From a virus (Duplodnaviria; Heunggongvirae; Uroviricota; Caudoviricetes), in the IMG/VR virus record IMGVR_UViG_2703719349_000003, positions 1 to 8,639 of that record: a stretch of 8,639 bases of DNA. The stretch is one strand, 5' to 3'. Positions 6,001 to 8,639 of this stretch are shown piece after piece. Made by a program: the position numbers. Position 1 is the first letter of the stretch; every line of letters begins with the position of its first letter.

Positions 6001-8639
6001 TACGAAGAAAACGGCCCGCCGTATGGCTGCCATCCTTCACGAATTTTTTGAGCAAGCGCATCCGCAAGGTCTGACGGCGACGCCGCCCTGACCACATCGT
6101 AGTGTTTAAATGTCATGAATCCTCCCGGCCGGGATAGTGTACTGAATCAGATAAAGAGCGGGCTGAGGTCCGGAAGTTAAAGGACAATGACAGAAGGAAG
6201 ACTACAGCCCGCAATACGAAAAAGGCCGCGCAGTTGCGCAGAGTGATTACTGTCGGGTATTATTCGCCAGCTGAAATATTACTTCACGTTTTGTTGTTTA
6301 TTCCTTGCCGCCCGCGTCTCCCGGCGCGGGCTTTTTTTGTCCATAAGAAAGCCCCTCCGGAGAGGGGCTGAAGCCGCATTTCTGTATCATCATGTACATG
6401 GTGCCGGGTGCCTCCCGGTGAGTTCAGTCCGGTGTCCCTGAACCCGCGTATCTCGATCCAGGTTGTCGTCAGAGATGACACCTTATACACCAGTCGCCCC
6501 TCCGCACAGGGGGATTCACCATGCGAAATTTTTTTAACAAATGCTCAGTCTGACAGGCAACTGTCAACTGACTGAATTGTGACACAGATTACACTTGTTA
6601 CCCACATACCACGAATCAGGTTATGCCTCAGTCATTATTAAACTGCACTTCAGCAAATCCGGAGCCTGATTCACAGGTACTGGATTTGATTGTGACAGTC
6701 ATTCCTGTCAACTGAGCACTTTGCAGTAACGGTTGCAGATTCCAGCGACTGGTCCAGTATTCTTTCCCGGCCACTTTTACTGTGAATGTATCATTCTCAT
6801 TATACTTGGAAAACTCAATTTTACCTTTAGCGCAATCCGCCGCCATTGCATTAACAGAAACTAATGCAAATAAAACCGCCATAAACATCTTCTTCATACT
6901 TAACTCCTTTATTCACCCGTTGTATATAAAGACTGTGACTTTCTGTTCAGAAACGCTGCTGCTGTATTACTTTCCCATAATGTATTGTTTATTTTTATAA
7001 CGGGCCTGTCGCCAGTTATCTGACATTCTGGTTGACTCTCTTCATTCACGGCGCGAACAGAACGCGCCCCCTGATGATGGCAATTCAGTATAACGGCCAC
7101 AGTACCCAGTATCGCTGATATATTATTAAAGGATATTCTCCCCACTCTGACACCATCCTCTCCCCGATACTCCGGAAGCACATTGCTGATTCGCCCCCAG
7201 TTCAGAGTGAGGTCCACGTCTCCCGGCGTCATCGTATACACAGGAGCAGTTTCAGACAGTGCCTGACGAAATTCTCTCTGTATCTGCCTGAAGCGTAAGG
7301 CTTCTGCTGTGACAGTGACAAAACGCAGAACTGCTCTGGATGCATCTCTGGTCATTGTATTACCACTGAACTCCATTAACGCCAGATATGATGAAACCAG
7401 TGAGTGACGACTGATTTGCATTCCGGAACGTTCCAGCGCTGCGACACGTTGCAGAGTGGTATAACTGCTGTCCGTTGTCATGGAAACCGTTGTCACACCG
7501 GGCACTGATATATGTGTAAAATCTGAAAAACGGTAGAAAGTATTTGTTGCCGTATTAACGAACCCGGCCACATATAAATTATTTTGCTCAATAATCAGAC
7601 GAAGATGGTCAAAACGCGCCTGATAGACATCAAGCCCTCGTATATCCACAGCAAAATAACTGCCCGGTGGGGTGTGGTTAATAACAGACACCGATGTGGT
7701 CCCCTGAGATATATGTTCAAGAGGGGTCGATATCTCTGTCCGTATACTATTTAACGAAGAGACATAACTTTGTTGGGTCGAAAAGTCTATCGTAAACTCC
7801 CGGGAATAGGATACCGAAGAAAAACCCAGTAACAGGCACAGTACCCATTTAAATAATATACACTTCATATACAGGTGTTCCTTTTGGCTGAAGTAATCAG
7901 CACCAGACCCGGCGCAGATATAAAAAAGGCCCGCAAAAGCGAGCCTGGTAAATAAATATGGCGCGTTGTACTGGATTCGAACCAGTGACCGATTGCTTAG
8001 AAGGCAATTGCTCTGTCCGGCTGAGCTAACAACGCTGAATACCGATAATGGACCGCCATCGAGGACTCGAACCCCGCGCAGCCAGCTTCGAAGGCTGGCG
8101 CTCTGTCCCGATGAGCTAATGGCGGTATGTGATATGGTGGCCCTTGCTGGATTTGAACCAGCGACCTGGCGATTATGAGTCGCTCGCTCTCACCACTGAG
8201 CTAAAGGGCCGGGCGCAGGATAATAACGGTACGTAACTAATCCTGCAATATCATCCGTTCTGACTGACTAAATCCTGAACTTCCCTGACCGTCTGCTCAA
8301 AACGTTCAGTCTCCAGCTCAACGCCAGTTGCACGACGCCCCAGCGCCATCGCTGCTTTGACTGTCGAACCTGACCCCATGAAGAAATCTGCAACCAGGTC
8401 ACCCGGACGACTGCTCGCGCTGATTATCTGCTGCAGCATTTCTGCCGGTTTTTCGCACGGATGTTTCCCGGGATAGTACTGCACCGGTTTATGCGTCCAC
8501 ACATCCGTGTACGGCACCTGCGCCGTCACGCCAAAATACCGCCGCAGATGCTTATATTCACTCTGCAGTTCCGCATACTGCCGGTTCAGTGAAGTATACG
8601 TCTCCAGCAGCTGGTGGTGGGGCTTTTCCAGTTCACCGC

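Follow-up and report, generated by a model that had tools for sequence, protein, structure and literature searches.

The region between stxB and a sialate esterase gene in the IMG/VR virus record IMGVR_UViG_2703719349_000003 raises the question of whether it encodes small RNAs (sRNAs) and, if it does, which ones. We analysed positions 1 to 8,639 of that record, the whole of which is called the window below; it is the late region of a lambdoid Shiga toxin 2 (Stx2) prophage, read in reverse, with the toxin genes on the minus strand. A first-pass annotation, made from the sequence alone, had proposed a candidate sRNA locus with opposed terminators at 6310-6627, and Rfam and published homologous loci between them bore this out on both strands. 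We are confident that the stretch is a known convergent pair, or dyad, of Hfq-binding sRNAs at the prophage moron site, of a kind carried by many lambdoid prophages, in a cassette variant other than that carrying AsxR; the locus is already known, and nothing in it is new in kind. The terminators and hairpins lay within the proposed range, while the plus-strand gene extended below 6310, to a predicted promoter at 6234-6263.

The Rfam/Infernal search proposed on first pass matched STnc100 (RF02076) to the minus strand from 6553 to 6339 over the full length of the model, with a score of 162.5 bits (gathering score 47, E=1.9e-37). The match started 74-75 nucleotides (nt) past the stxB stop (6628 vs 6553), and in Stx2 phages STnc100 has been reported to sit 75 nt after the stx2 operon (PMC12370729). 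Its location, too, was that of the family, a lambdoid late region with a pR' moron on one side and the lysis genes on the other. Exact string searches recovered three previously noticed hairpins to within one base: ccggg-tgcct-cccgg at exactly the predicted 6404-6418, gttcag-tccggtgtcc-ctgaac at 6422-6443 (predicted at 6421-6442) and cccct-ccgcac-agggg at 6497-6512 (predicted at 6497-6513). These are three of the helices of the STnc100 model.

Homologues of this RNA have been studied in some depth. "Convergent sRNAs 3' of stx2B" were described in the Sakai prophage Sp5 (Tree et al. 2014, PMC4104026), and sRNA "dyads" are reported in at least eight Sakai prophages (PMC7873438). The Stx2-phage copy, EcOnc27/sRNA103, is bound by Hfq and has been detected experimentally (PMC4104026 Table S2; PMC7873438; PMC12711010; PMC12370729). 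Since the EcOnc27 probe reads as the reverse complement of 933W STnc100 in its 3' part, EcOnc27 is the Sp5 STnc100 copy; it gives Northern bands of ~235 and 247 nt, of which the 247-nt species is destabilized without hfq (PMC4104026 Table S2), and sRNA103 of EDL933/86-24 (Gruber and Sperandio) is the same RNA. For several STnc100 copies, discrete RNAs of 177-247 nt that depend on Hfq are reported (PMC4104026 Table S2), and in EDL933 eleven copies are transcribed, with 660 reads per kilobase per million mapped reads for the 933W copy (PMC5331693). The copy in the window resembles STnc100/EcOnc27/sRNA103 in strand, position after stxB, closing helix, three hairpins and intrinsic terminator, and differs from the Sp5 copy in the hypervariable segment and in a 3' third, terminator included, of the type found in the Sakai prophages Sp15 and Sp4. 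By description only, it can also be likened to PasD1 and PasD2 of enteropathogenic Escherichia coli E2348/69, which are reported to be structurally related to STnc100 and to lie beside a sialate esterase gene in lambdoid prophages, with seed regions unlike those of STnc100 (bioRxiv 10.64898/2026.05.13.724894).

To evaluate the structure, homologues were gathered by scanning IMG/VR with the invariant 24-mer CACCGGGAGGCACCCGGCACCATG and reduced to 26 diverse structured cores. Over 28 pairs and these 26 homologues, 97.2% of cells were paired, as compared with 38.5-45.2% when the partners were slid, and the covariation score was 0.296, as compared with at most 0.095 with slid partners and with 0 of 500 shuffles as high. 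Changes on both sides were found in 9 of the 28 pairs, supporting a closing helix with enclosed hairpins as in STnc100. Such changes affected six of the eight pairs of helix 6422-6443 and two of the five pairs of helix 6497-6512, in which CCCC/GGGG becomes CUUU/AAAG in diverged copies that we termed Salmonella-type by their likeness to described prophage copies of that genus (L009, L012, L018, L033, L047 and similar IMG/VR loci). Helix 6404-6418 was invariant because it is contained in the search pattern, and was thus uninformative. Comparison of folding energies with shuffled controls, suggested by the first-pass annotation for both strands, held for the minus strand, with z=-2.08 for 6339-6553 and z=-3.38 for 6339-6597 (0 of 200 shuffles as good), but not for the plus-strand reading (z=-1.14). 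The longer segment has 44 nt more at its 5' end, which adds the strong hairpin 6545-6575; by analogy, this hairpin probably belongs to longer isoforms of the RNA.

A consensus terminator scan found both opposed terminators where they had been placed, at 6310-6338 on the plus strand and at 6341-6369 on the minus strand. The plus terminator, which ranks top among the terminator-like sites of the whole window, has a stem of nine pairs (eight G-C; 6310-6331) followed by TTTTTTT, whereas the minus terminator has eight pairs (six G-C; 6369-6350) followed by UUUCUUAU, an interrupted U-tract, and provides the 3' intrinsic terminator of an STnc100 RNA. By alignment, the latter is identical in sequence to its counterparts in Sakai Sp15 and Sp4 but not to that of 933W. 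The segment 5900-7100 holds four terminator-like sites, as compared with 1.2±1.2 in shuffles. An additional terminator-like hairpin in the stx sense at 6217-6241, located past the dyad on the esterase side and containing the -35 element of the plus-strand promoter, was near-identical in 933W, Sp15 and one 98%-identical genome of an E. coli that produces Shiga toxin (STEC), and was conserved in Sp4 too; in the aligned diverged variants its sequence is changed and its hairpin potential kept. With this third terminator, the plus-strand gene is nested between two sense-strand terminators.

Judged by its alignment with 933W (6117-6627 vs positions 1204-1689 of our 933W locus, L001), this STnc100 copy has a mosaic make-up. 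Counted from the stxB end, the first 123 intergenic nt are exactly those of 933W, with one mismatch in the first 140, while the central segment (~6444-6490) is unlike 933W and 10 nt longer, and the part from the closing helix through the terminator is of the Sakai Sp15/Sp4 type. The EcOnc27 Northern probe found no match in the window (>8 mismatches), as is explained by the Sp15/Sp4-type 3' part of this copy, and any targets set by the variable segment may be other than those of the Sp5 copy. We also observed that the breakpoints of the mosaic lie inside the sRNA gene, that the last ~130 nt before the esterase start are nearly identical to 933W, and that the swapped middle cassette comprises the variable segment of the sRNA, both terminators and the body of the opposite-strand RNA.

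On the opposite strand, the first-pass annotation had allowed for a plus-strand RNA ending at the plus terminator and had advised a comparison with published sRNA coordinates; when this was made, the published peaks EcOnc08, EcOnc21 and EcOnc42 fell on the plus-strand element, in agreement with such an RNA. Positions 6246-6345(+) are 98% identical to Sakai Sp4 (L004 2529-2430) and 97% identical to the Stx1 phage Sp15 (L003 3245-3344), where Hfq peaks from UV cross-linking and analysis of cDNA (CRAC), EcOnc08 and EcOnc21 in Sp4 and EcOnc42 in Sp15, lie on the strand equivalent to plus, together with a Northern band of ~271 nt (Tree et al. 2014, PMC4104026 Table S2). Peak coordinates were converted to NC_002695.2 with an offset of 0 at Sp4, for which EcOnc05 and its probe served as a check, and an offset of 135 at Sp5, from the position of AsxR, the same 135 being taken for Sp15. 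Upon conversion, the EcOnc08 peak corresponds to ~6264-6336 of the window and EcOnc21 and EcOnc42 both to 6173-6258, and the agreement of the last two after independent conversion supports the offsets. The published Northern probe for these RNAs, AATAATATCCGACAGTAATCACTCTGCGCAATAGC, differs from the minus strand at 6230-6264 in 3 of its 35 positions, and therefore detects a plus-strand RNA. In Sp15, stx1AB has been described as "bookended" by EcOnc42 on its 3' side (Sy et al. 2020).

Within this element, 6269-6338(+) consists of a conserved single-stranded CUUCACGUUUU...UUCCUUGCC segment followed by the terminator, whose stems vary between the aligned variants with pairing retained, and 6270-6340(+) folds with z=-3.10. 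The ~70-nt form so delimited is a prediction; it coincides with the EcOnc08 peak, while the published probe lies upstream of it. The region 6173-6265(+), antisense to the esterase 5' untranslated region (UTR), is rich in A-R-N triplets (AGAAGGAAGAC). The element shares with EcOnc08/21/42 the 97-98% identity over 6246-6345, the strand relative to the moron gene and the terminator; it differs in that the window copy stands behind stx2, whereas the Sakai copies stand behind stx1 or tRNA genes, and in that the ~70-nt short form proposed here is unreported for EcOnc08/21/42.

The promoter predicted for the plus-strand RNA was found only through comparison with AsxR, the partner of STnc100 in 933W. 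A consensus promoter scan called nothing upstream of either RNA, and the plus-strand promoter scores below 9/12. When the plus strand of the window was aligned with those of 933W, Sp15 and four diverged IMG/VR variants, the -35 TTGC and the -10 T,A,.,.,A,T were invariant throughout, and in 933W the sequence TTGCGC-N18-TAAAAT stands just upstream of the AsxR 5' end mapped by rapid amplification of cDNA ends (PMC4104026; Rfam AsxR match). The alignment with AsxR places the putative plus-strand start at A6269. What is added here, modestly, would be the promoter shared with AsxR and a predicted short form for this non-AsxR partner.

For the sense RNA, the candidate 5' ends are ~6524, 6553 (the Rfam boundary) and ~6575-6597. 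The first lies just upstream of GCAUGGUG, where a canonical TTGACC-N18-TAACTT promoter is found in Salmonella-type copies, and is compatible with the 177-187-nt species of other Sakai copies (PMC4104026 Table S2). The last rests on analogy with the EcOnc27 bands of ~235 and 247 nt (PMC4104026 Table S2), which put the 5' ends of the Sp5 copy 30-45 nt after stxB and may do the same for the window copy. A weak conserved TTG(C/T)CT-N18-TA(A/G)AAA, seen by eye ahead of GCAUGGUG and without the -7 T, is a possible sense-RNA promoter, and RpoD binding has been reported at STnc100 promoters (PMC10794520). As observations apart, the Salmonella-type copies have CUUUC/GAAAG in place of CCCCC/GGGGG, with their TTGACC-N18-TAACTT promoter immediately upstream, and carry a co-directional second terminator ~150 nt downstream, with no convergent partner there; in L014, L021, L028, L041 and L084 (IMG/VR), two same-strand STnc100 cores exactly 484 nt apart form a tandem duplication. 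A published proposal that STnc100 pairs with stxB through an 11-nt match (PMC12370729) had as its counterpart here 12 nt including one G-U, between 6711-6722 (stxB) and 6539-6550 (sRNA 5' end), which we rejected as being at chance level: the longest pure Watson-Crick match in stxB, of 9 nt, was equalled or beaten by 12% of dinucleotide shuffles.

In summary, the dyad stands past the moron that follows pR' (stx2AB in this phage) and ahead of the esterase and lysis genes. The sense member belongs to the STnc100 family and is related to PasD, with a predicted length of ~185-255 nt and an intrinsic terminator of its own, and the antisense member is an RNA gene of the EcOnc08/21/42 type, set 3' end to 3' end with it in the slot of AsxR. 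In the mechanism that we propose, both RNAs would be made in the lysogen, bind Hfq and base-pair in trans with host or prophage transcripts. The two terminators and the sense terminator at 6217-6241 would keep the units separate and, together with tR', would stop transcription that has not been antiterminated before it reaches the esterase and lysis genes, while after induction Q-modified polymerase from pR' would read through all of them. What we observed is membership of the STnc100 family, a conserved structure, the terminators, a conserved promoter and near-identity to loci for which Hfq and Northern evidence is published; trans action, targets and Q read-through are suggested by analogy and by what is established for lambdoid phages.

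The first-pass annotation had pointed to a reported anti-sRNA near the 3' end of the stx2 transcript. The position agreed with AsxR, the same slot being occupied in 933W and Sp5, but the sequence did not, an unrelated RNA body being present here. If the plus-strand gene were AsxR or AgvB, it would encode one of the anti-sRNAs that sponge a core sRNA (FnrS or GcvB), here the published one that acts on FnrS and derepresses chuS. Its position and orientation are indeed those of 933W/Sp5, where AsxR is reported 282 bp 3' of stx2AB (PMC4104026): in 933W, STnc100 occupies L001 1278-1483(+) and AsxR 1485-1537(-), two bases from the STnc100 end, and in the window the convergent 3' ends abut likewise, ~3-7 nt apart (6338 vs 6341-6345), with a shared promoter whose -35 element and spacing are identical. 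At the sequence level, however, this identification is refuted, and we give it practically no weight. Neither the Rfam AsxR (RF02703) nor the AgvB (RF02702) model had a match at E<=10 in 6100-6700 (gathering scores 63 and 56 bits), while AsxR scored 88.1 bits in the 933W control; with up to 3 mismatches allowed, the conserved 26-nt anti-sRNA core was found nowhere in the window, the ~42-nt conserved anti-sRNA 3' region (GUAUCUCAUGC.AUUGCCCGAACCCA...) was absent from it, and the plus-strand RNA body could not be aligned with AsxR. The likeness to AsxR/AgvB thus consists of the dyad slot, the orientation, the abutting STnc100 terminator, the TTGCGC/18-nt spacer/TAxxAT promoter, the small size and a 3' terminator after a single-stranded segment, whereas the RNA bodies have no sequence or covariance-model similarity, and the single-stranded part is G/U-rich in the window, in contrast to the CACAACA-type target mimic of AgvB. 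It is possible, though we hold it only tentatively, that the ~70-nt RNA with the promoter of AsxR and an unrelated body (CUUCACGUUUU...UUCCUUGCC with a variable-length G/U-rich spacer) represents a second class of moron-site regulator with a distinct function, sponge or seed-bearing. Pairing of the G/U-rich plus RNA with the CA-rich AgvB 5' end (-10.5 kcal/mol, 7% of shuffles as good) was unsupported, and pairing with the AsxR 5' end was matched by 34% of shuffles.

Each strand also admits a reading in cis. The minus-strand structure could be no more than the end of the stx2AB mRNA, its 3' UTR with the terminator, acting as a cis stabilizer or insulator, with the plus terminator only blocking antisense entry into stx. 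It shares the strand of stxB and comes immediately behind it, the scan called no strong sigma-70 promoter upstream, and three terminators within 150 nt suit insulation in the lysogen; we nevertheless consider this improbable, since the element is also met apart from stx (behind tRNA genes in Sakai Sp4), is preceded by a canonical promoter of its own in Salmonella-type prophages, contains internal helices that covary far beyond the needs of a terminator, and has homologues reported as discrete Hfq-dependent species (PMC4104026 Table S2) and transcribed in eleven copies (PMC5331693). Somewhat less improbable, if still unlikely, is a plus transcript acting mainly in cis, its ~271-nt form running antisense across the esterase ribosome-binding site and start (6104-6126) and controlling translation or late-transcript stability. 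If ~271 nt are counted back from 6338, the 5' end falls near 6068, within the esterase gene (start 6116), and the Hfq peak at 6173-6258 lies over the antisense strand of the esterase 5' UTR; yet no promoter was found near 6030-6070(+), the long form had no folding signal (z=-1.25), and its size comes from homologous loci and a cross-hybridizing probe. Such a role is compatible with trans action by the short form. Hardly any probability attaches to a small protein, although a 68-amino-acid (aa) open reading frame (ORF) with a GTG start, 6284-6490(-), and one of 55 aa, 6408-6575(+), exist mechanically, and ribosome footprints cover some EDL933 STnc100 copies (coverage value 1.51 for the 933W copy; PMC5331693). 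Neither ORF had a Pfam match, the intergenic alignment of homologues has gaps of 10, 5, 6, 2 and 14 columns, and the substitutions are compensatory for RNA helices; the earlier statement that no credible ORF lies between the stxB stop and the terminators was therefore upheld.

Several points weigh against the interpretation of the locus as a convergent sRNA dyad. The Rfam-bounded segment alone has a modest thermodynamic signal (the z=-2.08 given above) and its minimum-free-energy structure mispairs the 6422-6443 hairpin, and with so weak a folding signal covariation was needed. Over 157 nt the studied Sp5 copy is 79.6% identical, with differences in the central 45 nt and in the 3' third, and since the Hfq and expression evidence comes from homologues only, expression of the window copy is presumed by analogy. 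The sense RNA has no upstream promoter scoring >=9/12 in the consensus scan, so that its only source could be the stx2 or pR' transcript, through processing or termination. On the plus strand, the ~271-nt species starts upstream of the proposed promoter of the short form. Lastly, the rise in fimZ and espA transcripts upon sRNA103 overexpression comes about in an unclear and probably indirect way.

Table 1. Features of the window discussed in the text, ordered by position along the stretch
Feature	Positions	Strand	Basis or remark
NanS-p-like sialate esterase	4173-6116	-	Pfam
Intergenic region, 511 nt	6117-6627		stxB to esterase; stxB is its upstream boundary
Putative upstream Hfq-binding segment of longer RNA (EcOnc21/EcOnc42-type)	6173-6265	+	Homologous peaks
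Second stx-sense terminator-like hairpin	6217-6241	-	CUGCGCAACUGCGCGG then CCUUUUUCG; terminator scan
Predicted sigma-70 promoter	6234-6263	+	-35 TTGCGC 6234-6239, 18-nt spacer, -10 TATTAT 6258-6263
Predicted plus-strand sRNA, ~70 nt (EcOnc08-type)	6269-6338	+	Sakai identity, EcOnc08 peak, folding
STnc100-type RNA intrinsic terminator	6339-6369	-	Stem 6369-6350, tail CUUUCUUAUGGAC; terminator scan and Rfam terminal helix
STnc100-family sRNA gene, EcOnc27/sRNA103 homologue	6339-6553	-	Rfam model match 1-206/206
Conserved structured core	6396-6524	-	Closing helix GCAUGGUG (6517-6524) x CACCAUGU (6396-6403); RNAalifold and pair counts
Hairpins inside core	6497-6512, 6422-6443, 6404-6418	-	
Hypervariable central segment inside core	~6444-6490	-	
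Extra 5' hairpin	6545-6575	-	UCAGUC-AGU-UGACAG-UUGC-CUGUCA-GACUGA; straddles Rfam 5' boundary
stxB (Shiga toxin 2 B subunit)	6628-6897	-	Pfam SLT_beta, E=1.1e-46
stxA	6909-7868	-	Pfam RIP, E=1.1e-29
Three tRNA genes	7959-8210	-	Upstream of stxA
DNA methylase fragment	8251-8529	-	

Around the dyad, the gene order runs from the methylase through the tRNAs, stxAB, the sRNA element and the esterase to DUF1378, DUF826, holin, lysozyme, Rz and a Rha-like protein (Table 1), and the nearest phage records, at 97-98% identity, come from non-O157 STEC and represent Stx2a-, Stx2c- and Stx2d-converting phages. One of the tRNAs, with the anticodon CAT, was called tRNA-Met by ARAGORN, and its Sakai equivalent is annotated as ileZ (tRNA-Ile, anticodon CAT). 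A terminator-like hairpin in the stx sense, AGGCUCGCUUUUGCGGGCCU then UUUUUAUAUC, separates the tRNA cluster from stxA at 7927-7946(-). At the far end of the esterase gene, a 137-nt gap (4036-4172) separates its stop codon from DUF1378, with a plus-strand terminator-like site at 4151-4171 (CTGTCGCTGGCGG then CTTTTTTTAT) immediately past the stop. PasA/PasC-type sRNAs are reported to adjoin esterase and holin genes (Pas preprint, bioRxiv 10.64898/2026.05.13.724894).

To determine how widespread the cassette is, we searched complete E. coli genomes and found at least 80% of the region 6100-6700 in 548 of 5426. Among 120 STnc100 cores with full flanks sampled from IMG/VR, the partner was of the window type in 33, AgvB-like in 8, AsxR in 4 and EcOnc03-like in 3, the other 72 having different downstream sequence or no recognized partner. 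The plus-strand element was present in 57 phage records, including 29 from Stx2a-converting phages and one from an Stx2d-converting phage. Scanning species-representative genomes with CTTCACGTTTT-N0-14-TTCCTTRCC gave 51 matches, all in unrelated taxa and none in Enterobacterales, a number close to chance expectation by a rough estimate; the element is not in the representative genomes.

Dyads of this kind flank the main virulence genes of STEC. AsxR, one published member, ties toxin carriage to haem use, and single-nucleotide polymorphisms predictive of haemolytic uraemic syndrome have been mapped to the sense sRNA downstream of stx2 (PMC12711010). In the window, a partner of the Stx1-phage/Sp4 type takes the place of AsxR, and conclusions on AsxR drawn from Sakai and EDL933 are therefore not transferable to strains with this cassette, which is common among complete E. 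coli genomes. Should the plus-strand RNA prove to be a second class of moron-site regulator, Stx2 phages would come in AsxR and non-AsxR flavours that rewire different host circuits, and this may add to differences in virulence between strains.

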